Shown: positions 4,301-31,200 of the stretch, in pieces
Position numbering within the stretch: the first letter of the stretch is position 1
How the letters are laid out: each line of letters opens with the position of its first letter
From: Octopus vulgaris
Taxonomy: Eukaryota
Direction: 5' to 3'
DNA length: 64,000 nt
Assembly (NCBI GenBank): GCA_951406725.2
Contig: OX597838.1
Coordinates: 1,240,001-1,304,000 of the forward strand
Notes under the pieces: model-generated
What the model was told of the DNA's origin: nothing
Databases searched by the model: none
Seen by the model: the letters and a program-made list of their open reading frames with translations, nothing else
Made by a program: the position numbers and the translations under genes

Positions 4301-5223
4301 TTTTAATTATTACTTTTTATTTTGTCTTTATTTTCAGGGTATCTTACTGACAGAAGGTCAGAAACAGCGTATCTCTCTTGCGAGAGCTCTCTATTCCTCA
4401 GCAAACACAATTATTATGGTAAGCATAATCTACCCACCTTCTTTACATGGACTCTTCCAGTTATCCATTTACTGGCTGCTACATTTCTATTTTAGGGGGT
4501 TAAAGATTGAGTTGAACTTAACAACTCCCATCATCATCATCATCATCGATCCATTTGCAAGTTTAACACCAGCACCTGGTCCTTGGCTGTTCTTTACAGG
4601 TGTCTACTTTGTTGTAAGCATTCTAACAAAATGTCTGGTCTGAAGGTTAAGCCCTCTCCTTGCCTCCTCCCCAATCCAACTGGTCATGAAAGCTCTAAAA
4701 AGGGTCATGGATATAAAAAAAAAACACATTGTAGGCCGAGGTCACAGTTTCATTTTCTCCAAGGGTGGAAATAAAGAAAAGCTGCTTCAAACAAGATTTG
4801 AACTTTAAAACATATTTAAACGTGTTCTGTTCCCAGGATGATCCATTCTCCAAGATAGAGCATCACCTTGGACGCAATGTTTTTGAGGAGGCAGTGGTAC
4901 GCAGCATGATCAGAAGAAAACGTACAGTTATCCTTGTCTCTCCACAAATTCCTCACATCTACAATGCTTATCAGGTCAGTTCCTTTCACAGACATTGTTT
5001 TACATTATTGTTGTTGATGTTACCTTGTTGCATAAATGTGCGTGTGTGTGTGTATTTGTTTGGGTGTAACTTATTTATTTATTATTAAATATTAAATATG
5101 ATAATATAAATTATTTACATGTTTTTCAGTTATGAAACAATTTGCCGTAAAATTAGAATTTTTTAACTTTTATATATAATTTCATCTAAATATTTCTGTA
5201 ATTTGTGACTTCTCTCTCTGTCA

Positions 5224-5823: not shown

Positions 5824-8800
5824 GTGTGTGTTTGTCCCCTATCACCACCGCTTGACAATCAGTGTTGGTGTGTTTACATCCTCATTACTTAGTGGTTCAG
5901 CAAAAGTAACTGATGGAATAAGTTACTAGGCTTTGAAAAATAAGTTCTGGGGTCATTTTGTTCGACTAAAACCCTTCAAGGCGGTGCTCCAGCATGGCCA
6001 CAGTCAAATAGCTGAAAGTAAAAGAACACACACACATTTACACACGATAGTAATTTCTACACATGCATGTCCCCCCTCCTCCCACACAATAGTAATATGT
6101 GTTTTGTTTCTCTGCAGATAATTGTTGTGAATCGTCACCAAATCAAATGTCAGGGAAGATTGAAAGACATAAAGCGTGCTGACCCTGACCTTTATGAAAG
6201 CTGGAGAAGAGTACTGAAGGATAACAAGTAAGTGTTAGCCCCTTTACACTTCACATCTGGGTTATATTATTCTTGCCATGCCTACATTTTATGTTATCCC
6301 ACTTGATTTTTTGTATTGTAACAACCATTACCTGTTTGATATTAACCTATTTTATTGTAGTAGAAGCTAAAATAATTGAATGTCGTGTTAACCCAGATAA
6401 ATGATGTGAGGTTAACCCATGTGGTAATTGAATGCTGTTAATACACTTAAATGAAAGGGGGTGATGGTGGTTTAACCCATTTAGCCATTGAATGTAATAT
6501 TAACCCATATAATTGATTGGAGTTGGGGGTTAACTCTTGAATGCAGTATTAGCCTACATTAATTGAATGTGGGCTGTTAACCCATGAAATCATTGAGTGT
6601 TTTAACTTCACATAAATGGGGGAGTTGGTCAAACCATATAATCCCTGAATGAAGTATTAACCCACAAAATGTTAACCCTCTCCCACATATTACAAGTCTC
6701 TTGACATCATTGTAACCCGCGAATATTCATATTGTGTTAACCCTCCTTCGTTCCCCGTATACTTAGCCGACATTAGCTGCCCCTGTCACACAGAGATCGC
6801 TTACGTCTGTTCAAATTGCTATTTTGTTGTTAGACCAAGTTACCTCCCTTCATCAATACCGAGTAGTCTCCCTTACTTAGAGATGATCCACTTACTCTCT
6901 CAGTTTGTAAAGTTTATAGTGTCTCCTACTTTGACATTCACTAATCCCATTTATAGCCATTATATTAATTATGCGATCCACATCCTTAATATTTGTTCAG
7001 GGTATATAAAGTAAATGCTAGCCCTCTCCCCAACTTCCTGGCCTTCTCTCTATATTTGAACTCGTTGAGAGGGCTGCCAGAAATCTGTAGAGTATTGGAC
7101 AAATATTTTCTGGTATTTATGTTGTCTAAATAATGTATATTTTCTTTTACTTGTTTCAGTCATTTGACTGCATCCATGCTGGAGCACCGCCTTTAGTCGA
7201 GCAAATCGCCCCAGGACTTATTCTTTGTAAGCCTGGTACTTATTCTATCGGTTTATTTTGCTGAACCACTAAGTTTGGGAATGTAAACACACCAACATTG
7301 GCTGTCAAGCAATGGTGGGCAAACAAGCACAGACACACAAATACATACATATAGACGAGCTTCTTTCAGTTTCTGCCTATCAAATCCACTCACATGGCTT
7401 TGGTCGGCCCAAGACTATAGTAGATGACACTTGCCCTAGGTACCACGCAGGAACCATGTGATTGGTAAACAAATTTATTACCACACAGCCACTCCTGTGC
7501 CTAAGTTACACAGCCACTCCTGTGTCTGTTCAGAGTTCAAATCCATTTGGGGTGAACTTTACCTTTTACTGGAGTTGTTAATATAAAGTTTGAGTCAATA
7601 AACTTCACCCCAGAAAATGCATGGCCTTTATTATTATTATTATTATTAAGGCAGAATTGTTAGCACGCCAGGCAAAATGCTTATCGGTATTTTGTCAATC
7701 TTTACGTTGAGTTCAGATTCCACTGAGGTTGACTTTGCCTTTTACCCTTTTGGGGTTGATGAAATAAGTACCAGTTACACCTTGTGCCTTTAGTAGAAAG
7801 GATTATTATTATTATTGGTGTTGTGGTGAGCTGGTAGAATTGTTAGTACAACAGGTAAAATGCTTGGCAGCATTTAATCCGACATTTTATGTTCTGAGCT
7901 CGAATCCTGCCAAAGTCTGCCTTGTCTTCCATCTTTCTGCAGGCAATGAAATAAGGTACGAGTTGTGAACTGGGGGTCAGTGTCAGTAGTGGAGTGGCAG
8001 CATTGTTAGACTGTGAGAAAAAGAAACTACTGTTCCAGCACTTTTAACATTCTGAGTTCAAATTCCACTGAGGTCAACTTTACCACACATCCTTTCAGGG
8101 TTGACAAAATAAGTTATACCAGTCAAGTCCTGGGATTCAAATTTAATTGACCCCCAGTACTTGATAGATATTTTACTCGGTTCCTATCCCCATTTTCCAA
8201 ACCTTGTGCCATTATTGAAAACAATTATGGTAGCAGATTGGCAGAAACAGTAGAGAGTCTGGAGAAATGTTTTGCCTATTTGTTCTGGTTCTGTATATTG
8301 TAAGTTCAAATTCCACTGAGTTTGATTTTGTCTTTCATTCTTTTGGGATCAATAAAGTTTTAGTGAAGAATTGGGGTTGATATAATTGCTTAATCCCTTC
8401 ATAAATTTGCTGGTCTTAAAGTAAGTTAGTGGGGTTGATGGAATTGACCATCCCACCCTTTGTAATTGATGGCCTTGTACCTAAATCCTAAATAATTATC
8501 AACATCATCATCATTGTCAAGAACACATAAATTATAATAATTAATCAGTTTTACTTTATCTTCTAACTTTCATTATTATATCAATTTTATTTCCAGAAGA
8601 ACTAATGTGGTTGAAAGGTATTTTTGATAGATTTTTATATATATTGATGTCATGTGGTCATGTCCTTGTCATGCAGCTGTATACTGTGAGTGTGTGTGAT
8701 GTAGTAAAATGTTATCAGTATCTGTAGAGTACTGTGTGTGTGTGTGTGTGTGTGTGAGCTGGATGTTGCAAAATACTCTGTGTGTTTGTGTGTGTGATAC

Positions 8801-11800
8801 AGCTTGGTTTTTATATATATTTCAGAACAAGATCTAGTAGTGAAGTACTCAATACATATTGATATTCTTTCAAAAGTATCAATAAGTATTGGTCAGTAGT
8901 GTTATTAGTAGTAGCAAGAGTAGTTTGTCCCCTGTCTTGTGCAGTATTGCATGACTGTCTTACAGCATGGTACCATTTGTCTTGTAATAAAGTCGTGTCT
9001 TCCTTGTGGTACTCTAAATTTCATAATAAGGTACTTTGTATGCTTTATTATGTGGTACTGCATGCCTTATAATGAACTACCATCAGGTTTTTTTTTGGCA
9101 TGGTACTCTATATCTTGCGATGAGGTACTATACTGTCTGTCTTGAGGTACTCTGTACCATGTAGTGTAGTGTTGCCTGTATGTCTTGTAGTGACGTACCC
9201 TATATCTTGTAGTCAATTTTGTAAGGTACTTTATGTGTTGTGTAATGAAGAACTCTATATTTTTGTAAGGTTCTGCCTCTTTTGTAGTGAGGTATTATCT
9301 TTGTTGTAGTGGAATACTCTCTTTATCTATCGAAGTGCTTTCTGTGTCATGTACTCGGGTACACTCTGTGGTGGTGCATGGCTTAGTGGTTAGGGTGTTG
9401 CACTCATGATTATAATATTGTGGTTTCAATTCCTGGACTGGGTGAGCAAAAACATTTCATTTCATGTTGTTCCAGTCCCCTCATTTGGCAAAAGTGAGTA
9501 ATCCTAAAGTGGGCTGGAGTCCCATCCAGGGTGTGTGTATACACCACAGATTCTGGGAAACTGGCCTTATGAGCTTATGGCTCATGATCCTTTTTTAGGT
9601 ACTCTCTGTATATTGGGTACTGAGGTACTCTTATATGTCATGTTGTGAAATGTTCTCTCTATGTCTACGGTTTTGCAACATATAAATCAAATGAGGAGTA
9701 CCTTCTATTTCCGGGTCAGTTTTATCTTTTATGATCTGCCATAGTCTGCTATGACATGCAGTGGTCTGCTATGGCCTGTCATCACCTCTGATGACCTGCT
9801 ATCCCTTCTCATTGTGTCCTATGACCTGTCAACATCTCTCTAGTTTGCAATGACTTCCTGTGATCTATCATGGTCTTCTATGCCTTGTCAATACATCTTA
9901 TGGCTTGCTATGACCTCTCAATGTATGTTATGATCTGTCATACTCAGCTATGACTTTGAAGGTCTTCCTACACTGATGCGATTGATGTGTCCAGCCTGAA
10001 CACGTTGCAAGTCAAAGGAATAATGAAAAACTTCAGCAAAACCTATTAAGAGTCTATTACAACATGTCACATGTAGCTATAATTTGTTCTAATCACCCTA
10101 AATAGCATGTTCCAACATGTCAAATATCAGTAATGAAGCTGTTGTTTTTATTTTGTTGCCCCAGGAGGAGATCAAGTCTTCCAGAAAGGTATTTTTTGGT
10201 TTCCTGTTTGTATTATCTTTTCTGGAATTTTGGTCATTAGTATGTCCTGTTTCACTCATTCTTTCTCTCTCACATACCAAACTGTCATCTCTGGTATTCA
10301 CATCTCTCTCTCACATACCAACCAGTCTCTCTAGTATTCACATTTCTTTCTCTCTCTCTCTCATGAACCAGTCTCTCTCTGCTATTCACATCTCTCTCTC
10401 TCTCTCACAATCTGAGTATATCTAAGTCACTAGGTTTTACATCTGTCTTGCATTTTTTGTTATAAATGCTGCTCAATACTCTGGACTGCCCAGTGCATGT
10501 ATTGGGTGACCCGATGGGCAGTAGGGCATGCTTTTGTCTACTTAGGTTTAGTATGATATAAACTGTAAAACTGAAATGACCTGGGGTTGTAACTCTTTGT
10601 TGAGGTGTCCACTCTCATATATCACTCTTATACCTCACCCAAAGCATCTATTATCTTCAATATTCACTCTTTTGTCATAGTCATCCTTTACTCATTAGTC
10701 AATACAAATATTTCAAAGATTTTGTGTCATTTCCTTCTTTTGTTGATTCATTGAAGTTTCAATTTTCACATTGATATTTTAGAGACTAATGAAATCACAT
10801 TTTGATTAATCTATTGATCTCTCTTTCATAAAACAGCAAAACTAGAGTGTTGCCTGCTTCATATGATTGGTAACTTTGGAACTATACTTTTGCTACCGTG
10901 GGTACCATCAGGAAACATGACATACATACAATAATTAATTTTTATCAAATTTCTTGGTGTTTATACAAAATGAGGACATGAATATTAATTTTGAAAAGAA
11001 AAAATATTTGTTACTTTCTCCCTCTTTCTATGATTCTTTCTGTCATTGTGTGTGTGCATGCGAGACATTCCTTTACTCATTGTCTGTTACCAAGCCTAGT
11101 ATGTGCAGTCATCCTGTACTTGTGTTAAATCTCTCTGTATCTCTTTTTTTACACTCATTCTTCTGCTCTTTATACACTATAAGTATGACTAGAGAATTCA
11201 ACCAACCAACCAATATTTTTTATTGGTTATTATTCAGTAGAGATAAAAATATTTCTTTCTTTCAAGTTATTTTCATATGAATTATGTAGAGCAATTTTGT
11301 TTTTCAGCAGGTGATTTGTGCGTGTGTGTGTGTGTGTACAGGGATGGTGCATTTTTTGTTTGTTTTATGTTTCTGTTTTCATTGTGTTGTTTTGGCTGAT
11401 TTTCAAACAATGTCAACCCTGTACACTCTTGTAAAGTGGTTAGTAAATGAACAAAGATAAACATAGTGCAGAGAAGATTGTTTAGACATGCTGAAGAGAC
11501 AGCAACCTCTCTAGTGTTGGTGCCACAATAAAATGCACTCAATACATTCTGTAGAGTGGTTGGTGGTAGGAAAGGCAAACAGATGTATGATATGTACGAC
11601 CCTTGATCTTCTGGCCTTTCTAGATGGACACCAGCTCCAAATAACAATTGCTTTGGATCACGGTGATCCGTTCATCCCATGCCAGCATAGAAAATAGATA
11701 TATAAAAGGATAATGTTGATGTCTGATAATCGTGTTTCCTTCCTGTTTCAATCTGATTCCAAGATGTTATTGTGTGATTGTTGAGGATGATGATGATGAT

Positions 11801-12699
11801 GATTGTTACTCTTTTTTTTCTAATTTATGTTGGATACAAACATTAATCAATTTTCATTATTATTTGTTTTTTATATTTATTCATTTGTTTTTATTTCTTT
11901 TGTTTCTGGTTTTAGTGCCTGAGGTCGTCTCTACTCATTATCAGTTTGACAGTTTCAGTTTTGTTATCAGAGTTGTATGTCTTGTATTGCCTTAATGAAT
12001 ATATTTTTAGCTGCAGCTATAATTATTTTGGTAAATTTATGCACAGTCATAATTGATACTAATTGTGGCATTGAATTCTGAAAAGTTTGTCTTTGTTTCT
12101 TGGGGGAACTTGTTCCATTGGTTTTTTTTTTTTTTTTTACTTTTTTGAAGTTGGAGTTTTTTTTGCGGGGGTGGGGGGTGGGGGTTAATGCCTGGGAAAG
12201 AGTTATTGTAGTTGGTTTGGTAGGGAGTGTGTATGTGTGTACCTTTTAATGTGAGTAGCTGTGTATTCATTCTCATATCCCACTGAGAGGCTGAAGATGG
12301 GAGAGAGTGGGTGCTCCCTGTTCCTACTTTACAAAATTGAGAAGAACCATTTTAAAAGGCCGAAGAGCTATAAATGGACATCTTCTTTACATAGGAAGAT
12401 ACCAGTGACATGTAAGATACAACTTGGAGTTGTGTGTGTGTTGTGGAGGCAACACACACACACACTTTGTTATGTATGGGTGACCAAAGAAGAGAGAAAA
12501 GTATTTAGTGAGCATAAAGTTTAGCAACTTATTTGGATCTTGAACTTCATCCTGTTGCTACTCAAGATTTCTTGTTTCTCTGAGGTTCTTGAAGTTGTTT
12601 TAAATAGCAAAACAGTAACAAGAGACTCAATAACAACAGGGAAGGCCAGAACTTTCAGTGAATGAAACTATTTTCATATATATATATGTTAAATGTGTG

Positions 12700-12747
<48 letters not shown>

Positions 12748-12849
12748 TATCTATCTAGCTATATATATATCTTTTGATTTCCAATGTGCATTTTTCGCTT
12801 ATTTTTCTTCTTACTTTCCCCTTACATTGCAACATGTAGTTTCTATTTT

Positions 12850-12916
<67 letters not shown>

Positions 12917-15900
12917 ATGCATACATACATACATATATCCTTATTTATTCTGTTGTGCAACTTTATTCTGAAGAATGTTAGTCAAGTTCTGTTGGGGAAC
13001 ATTTAATCTGTTGATTCTTTGATTTCAGGAGATCCAGTTTGGCTGAGAGGTATTACTTCTGTGAATGCTTTCTTATTCTTATATATATGTATATATGTAC
13101 TTTTGTGTTCTTTCTGACCAGATTCTTATCACTGTTGTTATTATTATTGAGTGAGAGAGCATTGCATGCCATGAAAGTGACACTGGGGTACAAATAAATG
13201 AGGTCCAAATGCTGTTGTTATTAATATTAAGGTGGTGAGCTAGCAGAGTCATTAGCTGAACAAAATGCTTAGCTACATTTCATCCATCTTTATATTCTAA
13301 AACCAAATTTTGATGAGGTCAAGTTTGCTTTTCATCCTTTTCGGAGTCTATAAAATAAATACCAGTCAAATACTGGGGTCACTATAATCAACTCTTCTCC
13401 AGCCCCTAAAAAACTGCTGGCTCTCTGCCAAAATTCGATATTATTATTATTAAGGCAGTGAGCTGGCAGAATCGTTAGCATGCTGGGCAAAATACTTAAC
13501 GGCATTTCGTCTGACTTTAATGTTTTGAGTTCAAATTCTGTTGAGGTTGACTTTCCCTTTCATCCTTTTGGGGTCTGAAACACTGGGATCAATGTAATCA
13601 ACCCTCCCCCAAAATTTCAGGCCTTGTGCCTATAGTAGAAAGGATTATTATTATCATCAAGGTGGCGAGTGGGCAGCATTGTTGGCACGTTGGCAAATGC
13701 TTAACCCTGAATTTTGTCTGACTTTATGTTCTGAGTTCAAATTCTGCCTAGGTCGACTTTGCTTTTCATCCTTTTGGGGTCGATAAAATAAGTACCAGTT
13801 GAGTACTGGGGTGAATGTAGCTGATGTACCTACTCCCCACCGAATTTCAGAAAGGATTATTATTTATTGTTTTTATTATTTGTATTGTATTGTACGTGCT
13901 GTTGTTACTTTTCTTCAATGTTGTTTTTTACTAACAACAAACACAACAGCAACAACTCTGGAAATATTTATAGCTAATTACAAAATAACTGCCAACTCAA
14001 GTCCACACACGGCATCAACACAGTAAGAAAACTACAACAGAGAGATGACATGAGCCATACACGAAGAGTGTGCAAATCCCTTAGTCTACAAAGCCCCACC
14101 TTCTATCCATTTATTAATGTGATAGGGTTTATAACCAAAACATTTGGAGGAATGAATGGCGGAAGTTCGATTGTTGATAATTCATAAACCCGAGACAATC
14201 AAATTATTGGGGGACAATAAGAATGTGCAAGACCTTTAAATTTGAAAGTTGTATGGGTGTCCGATGGATGACAAAGCCAACAAGATGACCCTCTTATTTC
14301 CCCCTCCTCCCCGGCATTGTCACTGAGCAGGTGAATGGTCGAAATAAACTCTAAAATATGAATGAAGAAGAGAAAAACTTATATTTGAAGTTGAGTCTTT
14401 AAACATTTTTAAACAAATAAATCTAAATGAATCCCAGTGCATTTTCAGCTTTTTTTAAAATATATTTCTACCTGTGTGAAATAAAATAACTTTGTTTTAT
14501 ATATATATACTATCAATACACCCCAGTGTTGCCCAGAAGTTATGCCCACATGGTTCTGGGTTCAATCCCACTGCATGGCACTTTGGGCAAGTTTCTTCTA
14601 CTATAGCCTCGGGCAGACCAAAGCCTTGTGAGTGGATTTGGTAGACGGAAACTGAAAGAAGCTCATTGTATACATGAAGAAAGCCTTTGACAGGGTCCCC
14701 CGATCCCTTATCTGGTGGTCAATGAGGAAACTAGTGATAGATGAATGGTTAGTGAGAGCTGTGCAAGCCATGTACAGGGATGCTGTCAGTAAGGTGAGGG
14801 TTGGCAACGAGTACAGTGAAGAATTCAGGGTAGAGGTAGGGGTCCACCAAGGTTCAGTCCTCAGCCCCCTCCTATTTATCATAGTCCTCCAGGCAATAAT
14901 GGAGGAATTCAAGACAGGATGCCCCTGGGAGCTCCTCTATGCTGATGACCTTGCTCTAATTGCTGAGTCACTATCAGAACTAGAGAAGTTTCAAGTGTGG
15001 AAACAAGGATTAGAATCGAAGGGCCTTAGAGTCAACGTAGCTAAAACCAAAGTCCTAATAAGTAGTAAGGCAGACAAACCACAAATCCCTTCAGGTAGAT
15101 GGCCCTACTCGATCTGTAGAAAAGGCGTAGGTAGAAACTCTATAAGATGTACCCAGTGTAAGCTATGGACACATAAGAGGTGCAGCAATATCAAAGGAAG
15201 GCTAACTGGGAAGATAGATTTTGTATGTGGCAGATGCTCAGGAGCAATAAATAACACTGAAAATGTGCAGAGAACAACTTCCGCCACATTCCAGGGAAAA
15301 AAAACTAGAAGTAGTTGATAGGTTCTGTTACCTAGGTGACCAAGTCAGTAGCAGCGGGAGGGTGCACTGAAAATGCTAGAATAAGAATAGCCTGGGCAAA
15401 GTTCAAAGAACTCTTACCTCTGCTGGTAACAAAGGGCCTCTCGCTCAGAGTAAAAGGTTTTTCTCCAAACCATTTTGTTCTGTATGCCTAATGAATTAGG
15501 TAGTCACATGACCATTTAGTCAATATTTCAGCTGTTGTTGTTATTATTTTTGTAATCACAATACTTTTCTCTATTTCTTTCTTTTTTTCTTCTTATTCCT
15601 TATCACAGTCATTTTTTTTTTTTATTATTCTGCCTTCACCCCATCTTCCTCAAAATATTTTCATACCAAATTTGTGTGATCTTTAATTGCATGTTGTGTC
15701 CTTTCAACGTACATTATTACTATTGCAGTGTCGTAAGTACAGTGTGAGTCTGTCCCTCAATCATTGTTGTACTTTGAGACTGTTATTGTAGAACATTTGT
15801 GTGAACCCTAAACTGAAACTTTGAAACTGTTCCAGGGCAAATGATGATTGTTTTGGGTGACTGTCCTCTATGGTGATCTAAAATTTAAACTTGTGCACAC

Positions 15901-18900
15901 ACACATGCACATGTATACTTTAACTCATTTCCTATGTAATCTCTCTGAAATATTAAAGATCTAAACTTATTATCAGTTTAAATATGTTTGGGGTATATTT
16001 AACAAACGTGTAAGAATGCCTTTCACTGCATTTTCTTGCTGTTGACAAGAAATTTTCTCCATGACAAAATACAGTGAATGACCTTTACTATGGATTCGAA
16101 TGTGCCTCAAGCATATTTTCATCTTGTAGCAAGTTTGTATTCATCTACATCATTGCTTAGTGTGGTCACCTTGTATTTTCAAGATCTAAGTTTAAAACAG
16201 TCTCCAAGTAAGATGCTGCCCTTTTTAAACCCTTTGGCATTCAGAGTATTCTATCAAATGTAACATTTATTTATCCACACGTTTTTGAATTTATCCAGCA
16301 TTATCTTGTAATTTTGAGATTTCAATTGTGTGACTACTGTATATTTTTTAGAACTAGCATTGTAGGGTAGGTTAGAGAGACTGGATCTGGCCAGTTTGGT
16401 CGTAAAACAGGAAGAATATTTGGGTCAGTTTAAATGCTGAAGAGTTGATTTCTGACATGCTGAATGGGTTTAGATCTACAAAGAGATAACTTAGGGGACA
16501 ATGTAATAAATTTGGTAGACAGTATGGCCAACATTGAAACACATTTGGCAGAGAGTAGAACACATTTATTATTTATTTATGTGGAGTTTATATTTTATCT
16601 GTGTGGTATTTTTGTTAACTTCCAGGCAGGATATTGACCATGAGTTAGACAAGCACCGGCGAACTAGTTTTGACCATATCTCTGAACCAGTACACAAGCT
16701 GTCTATACAGGTATGTTGTCTCCAATCATTTTGTGTGTGTGTGTGTGTTTTCATATATATTAACATGAAGAAAGCTATGAAAAGGGACAGTGGCTACATG
16801 TGAGAAGTGTGCTTAGCTTTCTCGGCTTCTCTGAGTGGATTCACATTTACTTTTAAAGGCATGGGTTAATGTGGAATCTCTATATAGTTACTCGATCTGC
16901 AAGAAATAGTAGCTAAGTCTTCCTTAACACTTTATAATATTAAAAAAAGGACACATTTAATGTCACCTTTAATCCTAGGTTCATTGAACTTGCAAATGAA
17001 TGGCAATAACAACAAATAAACATGTTTTAGAGATAAAAATATTTTCTTTTCCACATTTTGCACTTAATTTCCCTTATTTTTGTATATTTTGATGTAGTAT
17101 TTTTAGAGTAAAAAGGACAGTATTAAAATCTGTATATAAACTAGTGTTATTGGGGAGAGCAAGGGCCATACTCGGAACATTTGTTTAATGAGAAACAAGG
17201 GCAATCCCTTAAAATTGTGTATAAACAAATGTTATGGAGAACAGCACAGATCAAGCTCTACAACCCATGTATGTTCTAATGTTGTTGAAGGCCATTAATA
17301 GAATCCTATGTATATACTACGAGGTTACTCAGGTGAGTAAGAGTGGTTTAAAAGCTTTTCTGGTCCCTCAACACTTGTTAGTTTCATGCAGTTCATCGTT
17401 TCTTTGTATTTACAATTTGATGAAAACTCTCTTTTACTACTACAAATACCAATCACTTAATAAGGTCATTGCTGGTTAGTTCATGTTCGTGCAAGCCCCA
17501 TGTGTTGGTGTTAGTCCCTGTTTTGGTGTTAGTCCCATGTGTTCGTGTTAGCCCCATGTGTTGGTGTTAGTCCCAGTTTTGGTGTTAGTCTGTTTTGGTG
17601 TTAGCCCCATGTGTTTGTGTTAGACCCTGTTTTGGTGCTAGCCCCATGTGTTGTATTAGTGCCTGTTTTGGTGTTAGTCCATATTTCGGTGTTAGCCCCA
17701 TATGTTGGTGTTAGTCCCTGTTTTGGTGTTAGCCCCATGTGTTGGTGTTAGCCCCATGTGTTGGTGTTAGTCCCTGTTTTGGTGTTAGCCCCATGTGTTG
17801 GTGTTAGTCCCAGTTTTGGTGTTAGCCCCTGTTTTGGTGTTAGCCCCATGTGTTGGTGTTAGTCCCTGTTTTGGTGTTAGCCCCATGTGTTGGTGTTAGT
17901 CCCTGTTTTGGTGTTAGACCCTGTTTTGGTGTTAGTCCCTGTTTTGGTGTTAGCCCCATGTGTTTGTGTTAGTCCCTGTTTTGGTGTTAGTCCCAGTGTT
18001 GGTGTTAGTCCCTGTTTTGGTGTTAGCCCCTGTTTTGGTGTTAGTCCCTGTTTTGGTGTTAGCCCCATGTGTTTGGTGTTATCCCCATGTGTTGGTGTTA
18101 GTCCTGTTTTGGTGTTAGTGCAATCCCATGTGTTGGTGTTAGCCCCTGTTTTGGTGTTAGCCCCTGTGTTGGTGTTAGTCCCTGTTTTGGTGTTAGCCCC
18201 ATGTGTTTGTGTTAGTCCCAGTTTTGGTGTTAGTCCCTGTTTTGGTGTTAGCCCCATGTGTTGGTGTTAGTCCCGATTTTGGTGTTAGCCACATGTGTTT
18301 GTGTTAGACCATGTGTTGGTGTTAGTCCCAGTTTTGGTGTTAGTCCCTGTTTTGGTGTTAGACCCTGTTTTGGTGTTAGCCCCATGTGTTGGTGTTAGTC
18401 CCTGTTTTGGTGTTAGTCCCATGTGTTCGTGTTAGCCCCATGTGTTGGTGTTAGTCCCAGTTTTGGTGTTAGTTCAATGTTTTGGTGTTAGCCCCATGTG
18501 TTGGTGTTAGTCCCTGTTTTGGTGTTAGCCCCATGTGTTTGTGTTAGTGCCTGTTTTGGTGTTAGTCCATGTTTTGGTGTTAGACCCATGTGTTGGTGTT
18601 AGTCCCTGTTTTGGTGTTAGCCCCATGTGTTGGTGTTAGTCCCAGTTTTGGTGTTAGTCCCTGTTTTGGTGTTAGTCCCTGTTTTGGTGTTAGTCCCTTG
18701 TGTTTGTGTTAGTCCGTTTTGTTGTTAGTCCCAGTTTTGGTGTTAGTCCCTTTTTTGGTGTTAGTCCCTGTTTTGGTGTTAGCCCCATGTGTTGGTGTTA
18801 GTCCCAGTTTTGGTGTTAGCCCCATGTGTTTGTGTTAGACCCTGTTTTGGTGTTAGCCCCATGTGTTTGGTGTTAGTCCCTGTTTTGGTGTTAGCCCCAT

Positions 18901-21900
18901 GTGTTTGTGTTAGTCCCAGTTTTGGTGTTAGTCCCTGTTTTGGTGTTAGTCCCTGTTTTGGTGTTAGCCCCATGTGTTTGTGTTAGTCCCATGTTTTGGT
19001 GTTAGTCCCTGTTTTGGTGTTAGCCCCATGTGTTTGGTGTTAGACCCTGTTTTGTGTTAGCCCCATGTGTTGGTGTTAGTCCCTGTTTTGGTGTTAGTCC
19101 CATGTGTTGGTGTTAGCCCCATGTGTTGGTGTTAGACCCTGTTTTGGTGTTATCCCCATGTGTTGGTGTTAGTCCCTGTTTTGGTGTTAGCCCCATGTGT
19201 TGGTGCTAGTCACAGTCTTGGTGTTAGTCCCTGTTTTGGTGTTAGCCCCCATGTGTTTGGTGTTATTCCCTGTTTTGGTGTTAGCCCCATGTGTTGGTTT
19301 AGTCCCGTTTTGGTGTTAGCCCCATGTGTTGTATTAGTCCTGGTGTTAGCCCGTTAGTCCCAGTTTTGGTGTTAGTCCCTGTTTTGGTGTTAGCCCCATG
19401 TGTTTGTGTTAGACCCTGTTTTGGTGTTAGCCCCATGTGTTGGTGTTAGTCCCTGTTTTGGTGTTAGCCCCATGTGTTGGTGTTAGTCCCATGTGTTGGT
19501 GTTAGTCCCTGTTTTGGTGTTAGCCCCATGTGTTGGTGTTACTCCCATGTGTTGGTGTTAGTCCCTGTGTTGGTGTTAGCCCCATGTGTTGGTGTTAGTC
19601 CCTGTTTTGGTGTTAGCCCCATGTGTTGGTGTTAGTCCCTGTTTTGGTGTTAGTCCGTTTTGGTGTTAGCCCCATGTGTTTGTGTTAGACTCTGTTTTGG
19701 TGTTAGCCCCATGTGTTAGTCCCTGCTTTGGTGTTAGCCCCATGTGTTGGTGTTAGTCCCATGTGTTGGTGTTAGTCCCTGTTTTGGTGTTAGCCCCATG
19801 TGTTGGTGTTAGTCCCTGTTTTGGTGTTAGCCCCATGTGTTGGTGTTAGCCCCATGTGTTGGTGTTAGCCCCATGTGTTGGTGTTAGCCCCATGTGTTGG
19901 TGTTAGTCCCTGTTTTGGTGTTAGCCCCCATGTGTTGGTGTTAGTCCCTGTTTTGGTGTTAGTCCCATGTGTTGGTGTTAGCCCCATGTGTTGGTGTTAG
20001 TCCCAGTTTTGGTGTTAGTCCCTGTTTTGGTGTTAGCCCCATGTGTTTGTGTTAGACCCTGTTTTGGTGTTAGCCCCATGTGTTGGTGTTAGTCCCTGTT
20101 TTGGTGTTAGCCCCATGTGTTGGTGTTAGCCTCATGTGTTGGTGTTAGTCCCAACTTTGGTGTTAGCCCATGTTTTGTGTTTGACCCTATTTTGGTGTTA
20201 GCCCCATGTGTTGTGTTAGTCCCGTATTTGTTGGTGTTAGTCCCTGTTTTGGTGTTAGCCCCATGTGTTGGTGTTAGTCCCTGTTTTGGTGTTAGCCCCA
20301 TGTGTTGGTGTTAGTCCCAGTTTTGGTGTTAGTCCCTGTTTTGGTGTTAGCCCCATGTGTTTGTGTTAGTCCCAGTTTTGGTGTTAGTCCCTGTTTTGGT
20401 GTTAGCCCCATGTGTTTGTGTTAGTCCCTGTTTTGGTGTTAGCCCCATGTGTTTGTGTTAGTGCCTGTTTTGGTGTTAGTCCATATTTCGGTGTTAGCCC
20501 CATGTGTTGGTGTTAGTCCCTGTTTTGGTGTTAGCCCCATGTGTTGGTGTTAGCCCCATGTGTTGGTGTTAGTCCCTGTTTTGGTGTTAGCCCCATGTGT
20601 TGGTGTTAGTCCCAGTTTTGGTGTTAGTCCCTGTTTTGGTGTTAGCCCCATGTGTTGGTGTTAGTCCCTGTTTTGGTGTTAGCCCCATGTGTTGGTGTTA
20701 GTCCCAGTTTTGGTGTTAGACCCTGTTTTGGTGTTAGTCCCTGTTTTGGTGTTAGCCCCATGTGTTTGTGTTAGTCCCTGTTTTGTTGTTAGTCCCAGTT
20801 TTGGTGTTAGTCCCTGTTTTGGTGTTAGCCCCTGTTTTGGTGTTAGTCCCTGTTTTGGTGTTAGCCCCATGTGTTGGTGTTAGACCCAGTTTTGGTGTTA
20901 GTCCCTGTTTTGGTGTTAGTCCCTGTTTTGGTGTTAGTCCCTGTTTTGGTGTTAGCCCCATGTGTTTGTGTTAGACCCTGTTTTGGTGTTAGCTCCATGT
21001 GTTGGTGTTAGTCCCTGTTTTGGTGTTAGTCCCTGTGTTGGTGTTAGTCCCGATTTTGGTGTTAGCCACATGTGTTTGTGTTAGACCATGTGTTGGTGTT
21101 AGTCCCAGTTTTGGTGTTAGTCCCTGTTTTGGTGTTAGCCCCATGTGTTTGTGTTAGACCCTGTTTTGGTGTTAGCCCCATGTGTTGGTGTTAGTCCCTG
21201 TTTTGGTGTTAGTCCCATGTGTTCGTGTTAGCCCCATGTGTTGGTGTTAGTCCCAGTTTTGGTGTTAGTCTGTTTTGGTGTTAGCCCCATGTGTTTGTGT
21301 TAGACCCTGTTTTGGTGCTAGCCCCATGTGTTTGTATTAGTGCCTGTTTTGGTGTTAGTCCATGTTTTGGTGTTAGCCCCATGTGTTGGTGTTAGTCCCT
21401 GTTTTGGTGTTAGCCCCATGTGTTGGTGTTAGTCCCAGTTTTGGTGTTAGTCCCTGTTTTGGTGTTAGACCCTGTTTTGGTGTTAGCCCCATGTGTTTGT
21501 GTTAGTCCCAGTTTTGGTGTTAGTCCCTGTTTTGGTGTTAGCCCCATGTGTTTGTGTTAGACCCTGTTTTGGTGTTAGCCCCATGTGTTTGTGTTAGTCC
21601 CAGTTTTGGTGTTAGTCCCTGTGTTTGGTGTTAGCCCCATGTGTTTGTGTTAGACTGTGTTTTGGTGTTAGTCCCATGTGTTGGTGTTAGTCCCAGTTTT
21701 GGTGTTAGCCCCATGTGTTTGTGTTAGACCCTGTTTTGGTGTTAGCCCCATGTGTTGGTGTTAGTCCCTGTTTTGGTGTTAGTCCCATGTGTTGGTGTTA
21801 GCCCCATGTGTTTGTGTTAGACCCTGTTTTGGTGTTAGCCCCATGTGTTTGTGTTAGACCCTGTTTTGGTGTTAGTCCCATGTGTTGGTGCTAGTCACAG

Positions 21901-24900
21901 TCTTGGTGTTAGTCCCTGTTTTGGTGTTAGCCCCCATGTGTTTGTGTTAGACCCTGTTTTGGTGTTAGCCCCATGTGTTGGTTTTAGTCCCAGTTTTGGT
22001 GTTAGCCCCATGTGTTTGTATTAGTGCCTGTTTTGGTATTAGTCCCAGTTTTGGTGTTAGTCCCTGTTTTGGTGTTAGCCCCATGTTTGTGTTAGACCGT
22101 GTTTTGGTGTTAGCCCCATGTGTTGGTGTTAGTCCCTGTTTTGGTGTTAGCCCCATGTGTTCGTGTTAGCACCATGTGTTCGTGTTAGTCCCTGTTTTGG
22201 TGTTAGCCCCATGTGTTGGTGTTAGTCACTGTGTTGGTGTTAGTCCCTGTGTTGGTGTTAGCCCCATGTGTTGGTGTTAGTCCCTGTTTTAGTGTTAGCC
22301 CCATGTGTTGGTGTTAGTCCCAGTTTTGGTGTTAGTCCGTTTTGGTGTTAGCCCCATGTGTTTGTGTTAGACTCTGTTTTGGTGTTAGCCCCATGTGTTA
22401 GTCCCTGCTTTGGTGTTAGCCCCATGTGTTTGTGTTAAACCCTGTTTTGGTGTTAGTCCCTGTTTTGGTGTTAAACCCATGTGTTGATGTTAGTCCCTGT
22501 TTTGGTGTTAGCCCCAGGTGTTGGTGTTAGCCCCATGAGTTGGTGTTAGCCCCATGTGTTGGTGTTAGCCCCATGTGTTGGTGTTAGCCCCATGTGTTGG
22601 TGTTAGTCCCTGTTTTGGTGTTAGGCCCATGTGTTGGTGTTAGTCCCTTTTTTTGGTGTTAGTCCCATGTGTTGGTGTTAGCCCCATGTGTTGGTGTTAG
22701 TCCCAGTTTTGGTGTTAGTCCCTGTTTTGGTGTTAACCCCATGTGTTTGTGTTAGACCCAGTTTTGGTGTTAGTCGCATGTGTTTGTGTTAGTGCCTGTT
22801 TTGGTGTTAGCCCCATGTGTTGGTGTTAGCCTCATGTGTTGGTGTTAGTCCCAGCTTTGGTGTTAGCCCCATGTATTTGTGTTTGACCCTATTTTGGTGT
22901 TAGCCCCATGTGTTTGTGTTAGTCCCTATTTTGGTGTTAAACCCATGTGTTGGTGTTAGTCCCTGTTTTTGTGTTAGCCCCATGAGTTGGTGTTAGCCCC
23001 ATGTGTTGGTGTTGGCCCCATGTGTTGGTGTTACTCCCATGTGTTGGTGTTAGCCCCATGTGTTGGTGTTAGTCCCATGTGTTGGTGTTAGCCCCATGTG
23101 TTGGTGTTAGCCCCATGTGTTGGTGTTAGTCCCTGTTTTGGTGTTAGTCCCTGTTTTGGTGTTAGCCCCATGTGTTGGTGTTACTCCTATGTGTTGGTGT
23201 TAGTCCCATGTGTTGGTGTTATCCCCATGTATTGGTGTTAGTCCCATGTGTTGGTGTTATCCCCATGTATTGGTGTTAGTCCCATGTGTTGGTGTTATCC
23301 CCATGTATTGGTGTTAGTCCCATGTGTTGGTGTTAGCCCCATGTTTTGATGTTAGCCCCATGTGTTTGTGTTAGACCCTGTTTTGTTGTTAGTCCCTGTT
23401 TTGGTGTTAACCCCATGTGTTGGTGTTAGCCCCATGTGTTGGTGGTAGTCCCTGTTTTGATGTTAGTCCCATGTATTTGTGTTAGTCCCTGTTTTAGTGT
23501 TAGCCCCATGTATTGGTGTTGGCCCCATGTGTTGGTGTTTGTTCCTGTTTTTGTTGTGTCCCCATGTGTTGGTGTTAGCCCCATGTCTTGGTGTTAGTCC
23601 ATGTTTTGGTGTTATCTCAATGTGTTGGTGTTAGCCCCATGTGTCGGTGTGAGTCTGTGTGTTCATGTTGGCTCTGTTTGATTAAGCAAATTATTACTTT
23701 ATCCAATACATCATTCTGTGAGACAGTAGAGTGTGATATGAGGCAGATTTTGATGCTTTTTCCGATAGAATGAGCAACTGTGTAGAAGCACCTATGGGAA
23801 ACGTGGATTTTCTTGTTTTGCTCAGTTTGCCTGTCTAGAAAAATTTACTCCTGTATCTTAGTCAAATGCACAACCCCATATCTGAAATGAAATTGGAACT
23901 GTTGACACACACATACACCTAACTCTACACACACATATACATGCAAAAAAAAAAACATATACACATACCTCAACATAGCTGTGTCTACAATATATGTCTA
24001 CATGCATATACACATGCACACGTATTTCTTGTGTGTTGTGTGATTAAACCCCTGTATATTACTGGTATATATTTGTGTTTCAGTCAAACCTTGGGATACC
24101 AATTAGTCGTCAGGTATCACAGATGTCTGTAATGACAGAAAATAGTCTTGAGGATGATGGATTGGAAGAAGGTAAGTATCTTGTCTAACATTAAAGTTGC
24201 AATTATATGCATGTGTATATCTGGTTGTGATGTTATGATGGTAGGATGTAGTATAATGTAAGTGCTGTTTAGCCCCCACTAATCCCACCTCTTAATCCAA
24301 CAAACGATACAAAAATGTGATCTAGCTGTTACCATTTTGGTTTTATTCAGCCACAATGTACCTTGGCACTACAACATCTAATGTGTTTCAAGATAGTTGG
24401 CTGTGATCTGAAGATTTGGCTCCTGCTTCCAGGTAGTTGAGTGGCCACATAGATGTTTCTTTGTGGAGCACATCTGTATAGAGAGCCAGTAATTCTGTCT
24501 GGAACAAGCTACACTAACAACATCTTGAATATATAATGTGTGTGTGTGCTAGATGTGATTTTAATTATTTTACAGTTCCGGACCCCAAAGCAGTGTTTCC
24601 TAAACCTTTCGTGCCAAATTGCAATATCGCCCTACTATTGACCAAAAAATGCTCCATCGCCCACACAACCCCTACCAACACTAAATCCCTTTGGAGAACC
24701 CCCCTCCCCACTGTATCATTTGACATTACATCATAGACTCATTGCCTGGTTAGTGCTGTTTGGACTAAATATGCATAGTTTACAAATCCCTTACTGTGGG
24801 TTTAGTTTTGTCATTAACGTGAATAAAATTGTAATGTTAGTTCTATATTATGAGGTAGTGAGTTCAATTCCTAGACCGGGCTGTATGTTGTGCTCTTGAG

Positions 24901-27553
24901 CAAGACACTTTATTTCACGTTGCTCCAGTTCACTCAGCTGTAGATATGTGTTGCAATGTCACTGGTGCCAAGCTGTATCGGCCTTTGTCGTTCCCTTGGA
25001 TAACATTGATGGGGTGGAGAGGGGAGGCTGGTATGCATGGGCGACTGCTGGTCTTCCATAAACAACCTTGCCTGGACTTGTGCCTCGGAGGAGAACTTAC
25101 TAGGTGTCATCCCATGGTCATTCATGACCAAAGGAAGTTACTTATTTGAAGAAATATGGTACTAACATACACCCCACACACATTTCATGGAGACAAAGGA
25201 CTATATATTTTTAGAATATGATTTTATTTGAATTTTGTGTATTTTCTGTAGAAAACAGTTTAATGTTTTAAGTCTGATGTAGAAACGCTAAGTGTTTTTT
25301 TAACAATTTCAGATGTATGCTTGTATGTTTGTTTGTATGGCTGTATGTAGGTTTGTATATACATGTGTTCTGTGTCTGAGTGTATGGGACTACATGCATG
25401 TTTATTCCAGTTTCGGTATTTGCATGAACACAATCACCTGTGAATGTTTCCTTGTGTTTGCATGTATTTTGTGCAAGCATAATGAATGCCTTTATGCATG
25501 CACCCATGTCTTTGTCGACTCTTTTATATAATAAACCAATTTCTGTGATTTAGTAAAAATGTGAAATGACCTTCCACCTGTCAGCAATTCATTCTTTGCT
25601 ACAGTGACGAGAAAACTACAATATGATACTCTTTTACTTGTTTCAGTCATTTGACTGCGGCCATGCTGGAGCACCGCCTTTAATCAAGTAACTTGACCCC
25701 GGGACTCATTCTTTGTAAGCCCAGTACCTATTCTATCGGTCTCTTTTGCCGAACCGCTAAGTGACGGGGACATAAACACACCAGCATCAGTTGTCAAGCA
25801 ATGCTAGGGGGACAAACACAGGAACACATACACGGGAGAGAATTTGCTTAGATGAGATGCAGTTCGGTTTTGTGCCAGGTAGAAGCACCACTGATGCTAT
25901 ATTCCTGGTCCGACAACTGCAGGAGAAGTACCTAGCTAAAGATAAACCCCTCTACATAGCTTTTGTGGACTTGGAGAAAGCCTTTGACAGGGTCCTCCGA
26001 TCCCTTATCTGGTGGTCGATGCGGAAACTGGAGATTGACGAATGGTTAATAAGGGCTGTACAGGCCCTATATAGAGAGGCTGTCAGCAAGGTTAGCATTG
26101 GCAACGAATATAGTGAAGAATTCCGGGTAGAAGTAGGTGTACACCAAGGTTCAGCCCTCAGTCCCCTATCATAGTCCTCCAGGCAATAACAGGGGAATTC
26201 AAAACAGGTTGCCCCTGGGAGCTCCTCTATGCTGATGACCTAGCTCTCATAGCAGAATCACTACCGGAACTAGAAAAGAAATTTCGGGTGTGGAAGCAAG
26301 GGTTAGAATCAAAGGGCCTTAGAGTAAATGTAGCAAAGACCAAAGTTATAGTGAGCAGAAAGGCGAACTCAGCACACACACCCTCGGGCAGGTGGCCCTG
26401 CTCGATATGTAGGAAAGGCGTAGGTAGAAACTCCATAAGATGTACCCAGTGTAAGCTATGGACGCATAAGAGGTGCAGCAACATCAAAGGGAAATTAACT
26501 AATAAGATAGCTTTCATGTGTGGCAGATGCACAGGGACAATAGACACCACAGATACTCAGAAAACAGATTCCATCACACTCCAGGAGGAGAAACTAGAAG
26601 TAGTTGATAGTTTCCGCTACCTGGGTGACCAAGTTAGTAGTGGAGGTGGATGCTCAGAGAGTGTCACCACTAGAATACGAATAGCCTGGGCAAAGTTTAG
26701 AAAGCTCCTACCCCTACTGGCGACAAAGGGTCTCTCGCTCAGAGTGAAAGGTAGATTGTATGAAGCATGTGTGCAAACTGCCATGCTTCACAGTAGTGAA
26801 ACATGGGCTGTGACTGCAGAGGACATGCTTAGACTTGAAAAGAATGAAGCTAGCATGAGCCACTGGATGTGTAATGTCAGTGTGCGCGCACGACAGAGGG
26901 TAAGCACCCTGAGAGAAATGCTGGACATAAGAAGCATCAGATGTGGTGTGCAAGAACGACGCTTGCGATGGTATGGTCATGTACTGCGGATGGACGAGGA
27001 GAGATGTGTGAAGAAGTGCTGCTCCCAAACAGTTGAAGGTATCGGGGGGAGAGGAAGACCCAGGAAGACATGGAATGAGGTAGTCAAGCATGACCTCAGA
27101 GCGTTGGGCCTCACAGAGGCAGTGACAAAGGACCGAGATCTCTGGAGATATGCTGTGACTGCAAAGACCCGGGCTGTTTCCTGCACCAGGCCCATTCAAA
27201 GTACCTTGGATACCAGAACATCCCGCTGTGCTTGAGGTGACCTATTGAGTCAAGTACATGAACATCAAAATAAATATCAATGGAAATAGTAGTTGTGATA
27301 CCTGTGCTGGTGGCACATAACAAGCACCATCCGAATGTGGCCGATGCCAGCATCGCCTTGACTGGCTTCTGTGCCGGTGGCACGTTAAAAGCACCCACTA
27401 CACTCGCGGAGTGGTTGGCGTTATGAAGGGCATCCAGCTGTAGAAACACTGCCAGATCAGACTGGAGCCTGGTGCAGCCTCTGGCTTCCCAGACCCCGGT
27501 CGAACCGTCCAACCCGTGCTAGCGTGGAAAACGGACGTTAAACGATGATGATG

Positions 27554-27589
<36 letters not shown>

Positions 27590-28259
27590 ACGATGGGCTT
27601 CTTTCAGTTTCCGTCTACCAAATCCACTCACAAGGCTTTGGTCGGCCCGAGGCTATAGTAGAAGACACTTGCCCAAGGTACCACGCAGTGGGACTGAACC
27701 CGGAACCATGTGGTTGGTAAGCAAAATACTTACCACACAGTCACTCCTGTGCCTACATTTAAAATATATTTCTCATCGAATCTAAATTAAATTTCTTTTT
27801 TAAAGTATTTATTATGTAACAATTACAACATTGTTGTCAGTATCATGATAGTTATGTGCATTAAAAATCTGCAACAACGAAAGGAAGATTTAAATATACA
27901 CACTCTAATTTTGCTTTGAGTACTTTCTGAAAAAAAATTTAATTGTAAATTCAAAAGAGTATGTGTGTGTGTTTCTTTTTAACTTCTTTAATAGGAGGAA
28001 AGCAGTGTCCATGATCTTTTACAAGGCCTCTGAGAATCATGGGCAGGGGTTTCCAAATTGGGGGACGGGCTAGCCTGAACTGAGTTGACTCCCCTAAAGT
28101 GGTGGCATTAAACTGAATGACAGGTTAAGGCTCAAGACAGGATTTGAATTCAGAATGCAAACAACTGGAATATATACTAATCAGTTGGAAAGTTTTAAAA
28201 ATATATATGTCTGCATACATACATGCACACACATACATACATATATGTATGTATGTATG

Positions 28260-28291
<32 letters not shown>

Positions 28292-31200
28292 AATTTCCAC
28301 ATAGGAACATGAGGTTTTGCCCTTGGCATGTAGCTTCAACCGTGTTTTTTGATGTGAATTTGCTACCCAGGTATCGATTAACCGAATTATCCATACTAAG
28401 ATAATTCATTCACCTACTTAAATATATATATATATATATGTATACACACACATAACACAAGCCAACAAAATATTTTTATCTCTTGTCAAAAATTTTGGAT
28501 CTGAACTAGGGATTTTTTGAGATATGGAATCTGATAATTATATCCACTTATTACCATCACATCAAAACCAGAATGCTTCCTTAAAATTCTGCTGAAAATC
28601 TAGTAAAAGTCTTTAAATCCATATAGACAAATTACATCATTGTTTATGTCTAATTACCCATGAATTTGTAGTTTGGATGATTTTCTTGAGTGCTGAACTT
28701 GAGGGAGATCTTGAACTAAGTTCCAGCAATAGTCCACCATCATATGCAAGTGCCATCCACCATTATTCCATTGATTTTTATGTCCTGATAGGAATATTTT
28801 CCCTATTTGTGTCACCAAGATTTTCAGGGAATTCATCAAAGTCACTGTGGAGATAGTGCAGCCTTATGATCATATTTTGCTCCTAACTTTTGCAAGTTCT
28901 CTAGCTTGTTGTTGACTATTTCGGTACAGTTGGCCGCTTACTTGTTGCCCAGAAATTCTTTTACAGCTATTACAAATGAATTCCATATTGATGCTTCAGT
29001 GCAATTCATTGAATTTACAAAGTTCCCATCTTTCACTAATTTTCTGATTTGAGATCCATCAAAATATGTCAGCTTTTATCTTTCACTTCTCAGATTCGGA
29101 AATCTGCTGCATAAATAGTGAAAGTTCCATCTTTATCCTGAATTCTAACAAATGCCAAGTTTGATATGGAGTGGAGGTAGGATGATTTTTCCCAGTTGAA
29201 CTAAAAAGGCTTTTCAACCACATTAAAAGATGCTGGAACTAATCTTCACTGTGGTCATTCTTTGATCAGCCAATGTTTTTCCCTCTGCATAAAAAGCATG
29301 GATATTTGGTGCATCCACTTTGTTGCTCCAGAGAAAATTAACCATCTTAAAAGTCCCCACATATCACCCACTGACAATTGGTAGGGTTTGAATATCTTGC
29401 GCAATTTATGTCAACATGGGAAACAAAAAAACAAAAAAAATGATGCTGATGTGATGACAAATGAAGTCATTTTTGTGTCATGGCTTTGGCAATCCTTTGT
29501 GTCTCAAGTTCGAATATGGCACTGCCCTTTCATTTTGCACCATTATTTTTACATTTCCTTTTTCATACTGGCATGCATTGGACGAACTTTTTGAGGGAGA
29601 GTTTTATGGTATTTACTGCTGGTTCTCAACCATCCCTTACCTCTGGACTCCTTTGAACTCTATTTTACTTGGGATGGGGTGGGGTGTCCTCGTAGCCATT
29701 TGATGCCTAAAAAGTTCTATTATATTTTTATGACTAAATATTATTTGGAATTGTATTAAAAAAGTTTAAATATTTTGTATATTGTAGAATTATAACCATT
29801 TTATTACTTATAAATTTTAATAACAAAATTTTATATGGACCCCAGGTGAGAACCATTGGCATTTACCCTTTCAGGCACACACACACATGTAGTGAATGAA
29901 AATAGGGATTGAAGAAATCCTGGCAAATACCTCAACACTCCATGTGATAAGCCTGGTTAACTGAATATACATTGAAGTGTATAGTAACACACACGCACGT
30001 GTGTATATGTGAGTGTGTAAATAATAAAAGTAATTAAAAAAACAATTATAGTGAGCATTGTACAGAGGGGAGAGGGGCGACCAGAACCAAAGTTGTTTAG
30101 TAGAAACGGTTAATTCTGTGAATGGAATCTTGTTATGAGGTAAGTTGTGCACGTATTACTGAACGGTTGGACTGTATCACTTCTAAACTGTCACCTTTTT
30201 TCAGATGACTTACTTCCCCTTGATGACTACACAACGGAGACATGTTTTGAACGTAAAGTATTCTGCACTAGCTCCTCCTACCCTCCCCTCCTCGCTACTG
30301 TTACCACTGCTACTATCACTACTATTACTGGTAGTCAACATAAATATGTAGTATTTTTCATGTAGTACACTGTAGAAGATTTGCAAGTGATGCACCGTCC
30401 TGTATTGTATACCACATGTTAAATCTCTGCTTAAACACTTATGCAAAACCAATGCACCTTCTTTTCTGCCACATTAATGCATATCACACACAGACACACA
30501 TGCAAGTGCTATTTATTCTCTTTCAGAGTATTAATGCTCTTTAGTTGTCCCTCTCTGATGGACACTAATAGAGTTGATGGACTTGTCTGTCTGGAAAGAA
30601 ACATTACATTTCTGGTCGGAAGAGATGTCTTTTTCCCAGCGTTTAAATAATACAACTGAACTGAAGGGGAGGGGAGGGGGGCGAGGACTTGTCTTAGAGG
30701 AATCAGATGCAATGTGCAAGAGTGAAGATTGAGCTGGTTGACAGTTGAGTAAAGTTGTATCAAGATCTCCAAGAGGAAGTTTCATGTAGAAGAAGGCCAA
30801 AACAAGAGACCAAGAAGCAAGATGCTGGGTTGGAGAAGACTAATCCAAAAGATACAAAAATAGAAAAAATACATGTTGATTTTGATGATGATGATCTTTA
30901 GGTCAAACATATCATGTGACATAGGTGATTGTTCACCATTGTGTTACTGGTACCTAAGTTGCTGGTGATAATGTGAAGAGTTGAAGTAGTCAACCATTCT
31001 CTAAATTAACTGACCAAATAATAAGTTCCGGTCTAGACTACTGAGTCATGCTTTCATGGAGTCTCCTTTAAACTTTATTTTTCTGATTCCTTGGACTTGT
31101 ACACTGCATTCCTCTCCAGGACAAAGTTGTCCACCTCAGCCCAACCATTATACCATAAGCAACCTGTAATCTAGATCAGGGGTTTCCAACAGAGGTCCAC

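Follow-up and report, generated by a model that had tools for sequence, protein, structure and literature searches.

The stretch analyzed here, a window of 64,000 nucleotides (nt) from Octopus vulgaris (contig OX597838.1, positions 1,240,001 to 1,304,000), carries on its plus strand the 3' half of a gene for a sulfonylurea receptor (SUR, ABCC8/9). Part of the linker between nucleotide-binding domain 1 (NBD1) and the second transmembrane domain (TMD2) is encoded by three optional micro-exons, named A, B, and C.

A SUR gene with three micro-exons in its linker

The gene was assigned to SUR because the gene model, the structure matches, and the trees all agree. A 26-exon model from position 1196 to 50252 that includes A, B, and C has 921 of 922 residues in common with Octopus sinensis isoform X1, and the exon at 4837-4974, 5' of the micro-exon cassette, is a 100% match to the O. 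sinensis 'ABCC9-like isoform X4' and a 91% match to an Argonauta protein. The nearest solved structures are SUR1 and SUR2 (E-values of about 1e-68 to 1e-66, against 3e-54 for ABCC4). Two ABC_membrane and two ABC_tran stretches were detected with Pfam, and the TMD0 region of a decapodiform counterpart is 48-50% identical to that of scallop SUR. Two FastTree trees place the coleoid proteins as the sister group of gastropod and bivalve SUR (support 1.0); the coleoid branch is long (0.8-0.9) and the trees include no one-clade test. By tree grouping, closest structures, and the layout of TMD0 plus two membrane and two nucleotide-binding units, the protein is, at the sequence level, a member of the SUR group. 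It shares with SUR1 (ABCC8) and SUR2 (ABCC9) the TMD0-bearing layout, an acidic stretch before TMD2, and its place in the tree. A second, canonical octopus SUR was not found among 42 matches or the best 32 of 150 new representatives; the 42-match search also missed the octopus protein itself.

Three constitutive exons frame the linker. The exon at 6118-6227 closes NBD1 and ends in phase 2 (gene model and read contigs). That at 16626-16710, found in the gene model, the read contigs, and decapodiform proteins, encodes RRTSF (16657-16671; RRTSL in decapodiforms), and that at 24084-24171, part of the gene model, encodes RQVS (24108-24119) and the first part of the acidic stretch; a decapodiform protein matches it at 27 of 29 residues. 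The 10.4-kb intron between the first two contains micro-exon A (8597-8617, 21 nt), which encodes RTNVVE plus a junction Arg and has no kinase motif of its own; B (10165-10188, 24 nt), which encodes RRSSLPE plus a junction Arg and holds a complete RRxSL as well as RxxSxP; and C (13029-13049, 21 nt), which encodes RSSLAE plus a junction Arg. All three have AG/GT ends, are phase 2-2, preserve the frame, and lie within the micro-exon size of at most about 27 nt. Their coordinates, phases, and translations had been proposed from the DNA letters alone (below, the sequence-only reading); they were reproduced when recomputed in the 26-exon model, and the structure matches and trees bear out their location in the NBD1-TMD2 linker of a SUR. 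The same reading expected standard gene predictors to miss the three segments, which proved wrong: all three are present in existing RefSeq and GenBank models.

An exon cannot be proved here from its splice signals alone, because an unannotated 24-nt phase-2 look-alike at 16184-16207, present in 0 of the 14 listed models, outscores all three. Among the 58 phase-2 AG..GT candidates in the 10.4-kb intron that are 21 or 24 nt long and free of stops, this look-alike ranks first by splice-site score and A, C, and B rank second, third, and fourth. The scoring matrix was trained on 22 exons of the same gene and the cut-off was the weakest micro-exon score, hence circular; it is passed by no candidate in the gene's remaining introns (35.9 kb) and by one on the minus strand of the whole window. 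Counting both strands, the window contains the junction GA(A/G)AG|GTATT four times, and A, B, and C account for three of these. The introns at 16711-24083 and 24172-30204 yielded no strong in-frame micro-exon candidate, and one weak candidate lies at 32308-32352. The acceptor of B is a tandem CAG-GAG (10162-10170); use of the distal site would shorten B to 21 nt at the cost of one Arg, a form not among the listed models.

The three exons resemble neural micro-exons (SRRM3/4, Srrm234 eMIC) in their length of 21-24 nt, their preservation of the frame, their weak donors, and their residence in a channel-related gene; the literature describes fly eMIC targets as enriched in ion channels (PMC8797185). 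However, the eMIC cis code of UGC, a long AG-exclusion zone, and a strong branch point is not evident at A, B, and C, and their cis features lend no support to neural eMIC-type control. UGC lies near the acceptor of one of the three (B), a CTAAC branch point is present only at A, and the AG-exclusion zones measure 46, 24, and 40 nt for A, B, and C, with a constitutive median of 39; the flanking introns are kilobase-sized. The GTATT donors score 1.2-5.6, compared with a constitutive median of 10.8.

The sequence-only reading also took the cassette to be duplicated, and this is probably correct. C shares 15 of its 21 nt with B and 14 with A, values that none of 246 control 21-mers reached (maximum 12); A and B agree at 12 of 21, a score matched by 4 of the 246 controls. 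Aligning the intronic flanks revealed no clear homology beyond the splice signals and no sign of recent duplication. The simplest reading of these alignments is that A, B, and C probably arose by duplication from one ancestral exon, in an old event whose flanks have since diverged.

Isoforms in Octopus and in decapodiforms

The Octopus protein cluster holds 21 members; 15 are listed, and 14 of these, from O. sinensis, O. bimaculoides, and O. vulgaris, are full length. All eight combinations of A, B, and C are represented in these 14 models (none, 2; A, 1; B, 2; C, 1; AB, 1; AC, 2; BC, 1; ABC, 4), in line with the earlier proposal of frame-preserving, independently optional segments giving up to eight combinations. 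At least one micro-exon is present in 12 models, and A, B, and C are found in eight each; the B sequence is identical in O. sinensis and O. bimaculoides. The single Argonauta model lacks the micro-exons. A, B, and C are real, independently optional exons that were already present in public gene models.

Decapodiform transcript-derived proteins form two clusters (15 of 21 and 4 of 4 members listed), one of which holds a named Sepia pharaonis fragment while the other is its sister in the tree. Twelve listed members span the linker, and nine of them include one or two cassette exons: three have none, five a first exon alone, one C alone, two the first exon plus C, and one the first exon plus an exon reading IQTWLK. 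One set of nearly identical proteins (0-2 mismatches beyond the cassette; 1716-1742 amino acids; contigs of 5.5-7.6 kb) contains the forms with none, first alone, C alone, and both, and these sequences, which differ by 0-2 residues, likely come from one species.

Octopods and decapodiforms parted about 270 million years ago. In the two decapodiform clusters, C keeps 7/7 and 6/7 residues, as RSSLAE and, in the Sepia-containing cluster, as RCSLAE, and its 7/7 identity to the decapodiform protein P0038 compares with 1246/1753 over the whole protein. The only change, giving RRCSL, falls on the free -1 position, so that R-R-x-S-L is retained. The outcome that would have refuted the sequence-only reading, namely junction reads all running from 6227 to 16626 together with segments no better conserved than the neighboring intron, was not observed, as C keeps its sequence in decapodiform transcripts. 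The decapodiform first exon (KNVVPE or KTAAPE) has seven codons and the same place but shares 2/6 residues with A and with B alike; being equally close to both in sequence, it was assigned to neither. The best back-translation of IQTWLK resembles octopus C with small frame shifts, a resemblance equalled by 1 of 300 random peptides against C and 2 of 300 against A, and in the protein concerned (P0034) this exon may be a shifted copy or an assembly error.

Kinase motifs encoded by the exon combinations

R-R-x-S/T followed by a hydrophobic residue is the consensus of protein kinase A (PKA), and the linker carries several predicted kinase consensus sites. The exon upstream of the cassette ends in AA and the micro-exons in AG, so the base that follows sets the junction codon to Lys or Arg: it is Arg after a micro-exon because AG then meets an initial G. 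C alone therefore reads KRSSL, which becomes RRSSL when A or B precedes it. Counting the constitutive RRTSF, the RRx(S/T)-hydrophobic motifs number one with no micro-exon, with A, and with C (plus KRSSL), two with B, AB, and AC, and three with BC and ABC. The claim that the array sets a phosphosite count thus holds in part: RRSSL and RRTSF are present, but A adds no motif, the eight isoforms give one to three, and the RQVS counted as a further site carries a single Arg. A is a context exon, which supplies the first (-3) Arg of C's motif and gives RRR with B. RRR is limited to AB and ABC and RxxSxP to the isoforms that include B, and the net charge of the segment ranges from 0 to +4 across isoforms.

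Other optional segments

The octopus linker contains a further optional exon, D (30205-30252, 48 nt, phase 1-1), which the sequence-only reading had not described. It adds 16 residues amid the acidic ED-like stretch, is included in 10 and absent from 4 of the 14 listed Octopus models, and is absent from the Argonauta and decapodiform sequences examined. The linker is highly variable among molluscs in general. Aplysia (P0233, P0062, P0231, P0232) and Biomphalaria (P0238, P0235, P0237) have optional segments of 13 and 5 residues, and the latter (SLRRF, FLRRQ) puts RR before a constitutive Ser, creating RRxS. Because the protein alignment places it at about the next junction downstream, this gastropod segment is probably independent of the coleoid cassette, that is, convergent. 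Mytilus has an optional six-residue segment at that linker position without an RRxS motif. Among listed full-length members, the linker is invariant in oysters, Pomacea, and Patella, and differs by one residue in Dreissena. Elsewhere in the octopus protein, residues 714-738 of P0011 and P0007, encoded 5' of the window, form a 25-residue optional stretch of the TMD1-NBD1 linker that lies upstream of the motifs RRPSF and RRNTN.

Altered nucleotide site 2

Motif alignment and the genomic codons revealed that this SUR departs from the consensus at nucleotide site 2, which may be the gene's more surprising feature. In NBD2, the Walker A Lys is replaced by Arg (CGA; 45309-45332), the Q-loop Gln by His (45447-45461), and the Walker B Asp-Glu by Glu-Gln (48404-48418), and the NBD1 signature that forms part of this site reads LTEGQ instead of LSGGQ (4347-4361). 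The three NBD2 changes are found in 6 of 6 coleoid sequences, all of which also have LTEGQ and no canonical D-loop, and in 0 of 27 others (22 molluscs, Owenia, Lingula, Amphiura, and two fish ABCC3), which keep the K, Q, and DE; this count excluded P0063, P0066, P0021, 12 of 14 fish ABCC3 matches, and redundant isoforms. The His of the NBD1 H-loop is also substituted (by Pro, Ser, or Thr). An intact consensus site 2, with Walker A Lys, Walker B Asp-Glu, and NBD1 LSGGQ, is therefore missing from the predicted coleoid sequences. NBD2 is not decaying, as 208 of 241 residues (86%) are identical between octopus and a decapodiform.

SUR1 has the Walker A Lys, Walker B Asp-Glu, Q-loop Gln, and LSGGQ that the octopus protein lacks, and its residues K1384, D1505, and E1506 serve phosphate binding, Mg coordination, and water activation at the sole competent site (PMC5940251). 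Gating of SUR is described as not needing hydrolysis, with Mg-ADP binding at NBD2 thought to drive it (PMC10950283). Given these residue roles and hydrolysis-free gating, the substitutions argue strongly that hydrolysis would be lost at coleoid site 2, and less strongly that nucleotide sensing may be altered.

Repeats in the window

The intron that follows the exon at 16626-16710 is filled by a 6.2-kb satellite (17497-23655) of 18/37-nt units, with about 334 copies of the 18-nt unit. Two related, broken retrotransposon fragments (RVT_1 plus PHD finger) lie at 14656-15460 and 25776-27232, the first being very deeply covered by reads in all four sequencing runs described below. Downstream of the gene, a DDE transposase fragment was found at 52003-52400 (weak Pfam DDE_3 match).

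Discussion

We consider it rather likely that, in the R-domain-like NBD1-TMD2 linker of coleoid SUR, splicing sets the number, from one to three, of predicted basophilic-kinase sites, and that phosphorylation repositions the linker and alters a putative partner channel. The independently spliced A, B, and C would vary the number of PKA-type sites at the start of the linker, and PKA or a related kinase could phosphorylate the predicted RRSSL serines. By analogy with CFTR and Ycf1, phosphorylation would then shift the linker out of the NBD or TMD cleft and change the conformation passed from SUR to its putative partner channel. Such an effect might weigh more in coleoids because their site 2 has lost the canonical catalytic and Mg-binding residues. 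The occurrence of all eight combinations, the optional use of the exons in decapodiforms, the conservation of C, the gastropod RR segment, and the coleoid-only changes in site 2 all favor this interpretation. It is also possible, at a clearly lower probability, that coleoid SUR, once a sensor of ADP/ATP, now works as a regulator gated by kinases, in which site 2 was rebuilt and no longer senses Mg-ADP in the usual manner, the duplicated micro-exons became a CFTR-like R domain with PKA sites dialled by splicing, and the junction codons (A or B before C) act as an AND gate.

In other ABCC proteins, this linker is a known regulatory element. It is phospho-regulated in CFTR and Ycf1 (PMC13648608, PMC10276813), where it forms an R domain, and in SUR2 it comprises an R helix and the ED domain (PMC13648608). 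The octopus linker resembles the R domains of CFTR (ABCC7), Ycf1, and MRP2 in its location, its several basophilic motifs, and its low-complexity segment. It differs from them in that the site number comes from splicing and junction codons; no sequence homology was shown.

Several observations weigh against the kinase-site interpretation. RRxS motifs are common in Arg/Ser-rich disordered linkers, and the RefSeq and GenBank isoforms are computed models. B, seen only in Octopus, is missing from all 12 listed decapodiform sequences; the commonest form in these (5/12) has the site-less first exon alone, and one contig (P0034) carries the unrelated seven-codon IQTWLK exon, so that a role in length or charge is suggested as well. 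Reads from four sequencing runs (X1, X5, X8, and X10, none recorded as RNA or bearing a tissue label) were aligned over 6100-16730 and assembled into contigs. In three of them (X1, X5, X8), one long contig splices 6227 straight to 16626, making skipping the assembled path, and no inclusion joint was among the joints displayed for the four runs, it being noted that repeats crowded the joint tables and that contigs drop rare variants. In X10, the contigs break at the 6227/16626 junction, which may reflect inclusion or merely unspliced RNA. Both skipping (three of four runs) and inclusion (Octopus models and decapodiform transcript proteins) therefore occur. Finally, the mammalian SUR2B linker is described as acting via the ED domain and not through phosphorylation (PMC13648608).

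The principal competing explanation, which we hold to be unlikely, is that the exons serve as spacers or charge carriers: they would add 7-22 residues and basic charge after the last helix of NBD1 and thereby shift an R-helix-like element without phosphorylation. A six-residue insertion in the R helix of SUR2A boosts Mg-nucleotide activation (PMC10276813), the charge of the octopus segment climbs across isoforms from 0 to +4, and the decapodiform first exon, which belongs to the commonest included form, keeps its length and terminal E-R and otherwise little (2/6). This explanation does not account for the exact R-x-S-L kept in C despite a variable -1 position, nor for the gastropod RR segment, and the R-helix equivalent is not alignable with confidence, as the linker alignment to vertebrate SUR is too gapped.

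Two further explanations seem improbable to us. The serine motif RxxSxP is a 14-3-3 motif, and since AB creates an RRR (RxR-type) signal for retention in the endoplasmic reticulum beside it, splicing and phosphorylation of the cassette might control surface delivery, not gating. RRR is confined to AB and ABC and RxxSxP to the B-containing forms, and SUR1 and Kir6 possess an RKR retention motif (PMC10950283); however, such a trafficking switch hinges on B, which the 12 listed decapodiform sequences lack, and the conserved C has neither RxR nor a Pro at +2. Tolerated splicing noise, in which short in-frame exons come and go in a disordered linker to no functional effect, has an equally low probability in our estimate. 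Skipping as the main path in three of four runs, the weak GTATT donors, and a linker that varies widely among molluscs would be expected of noise, but the 6-7 of 7 residues of C kept between octopods and decapodiforms, the identity of B in two Octopus species, and an assembled path that includes cassette exons in 9 of the 12 decapodiform sequences would not. The kinase-site interpretation remains the one we prefer.

Micro-exons are a known kind of feature, as are phospho-regulated ABCC linkers and SUR isoforms, and A, B, and C, being annotated, are themselves no discovery; their reading as a kinase-site series on a SUR with an altered site is apparently unpublished. The SUR splice variation described is the C-terminal SUR2A/B switch (PMC10950283), and no description of a linker micro-exon array was found in the literature passages on SUR splice variation. 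A crab SUR is the subject of PMC11577616. No paper was found that treats SUR in cephalopods, the micro-exon array, or the changes at site 2, in a search whose coverage mostly left out subscription journals, and the supplements of 10.64898/2026.09.05.749416, a study that includes O. bimaculoides, may list the exons; the main-text passages of an octopus micro-exon paper contained no mention of ABCC. Likewise, no paper reporting a laboratory Walker B mutant of SUR1 was found.

Phospho-regulation of the SUR linker has been stated as an open question (PMC13648608, PMC10276813). A natural series of eight isoforms carrying one to three motifs, together with a separate gastropod solution, makes this question testable, and the answer would bear on how cephalopod excitable cells couple metabolism or cyclic AMP to membrane potential.

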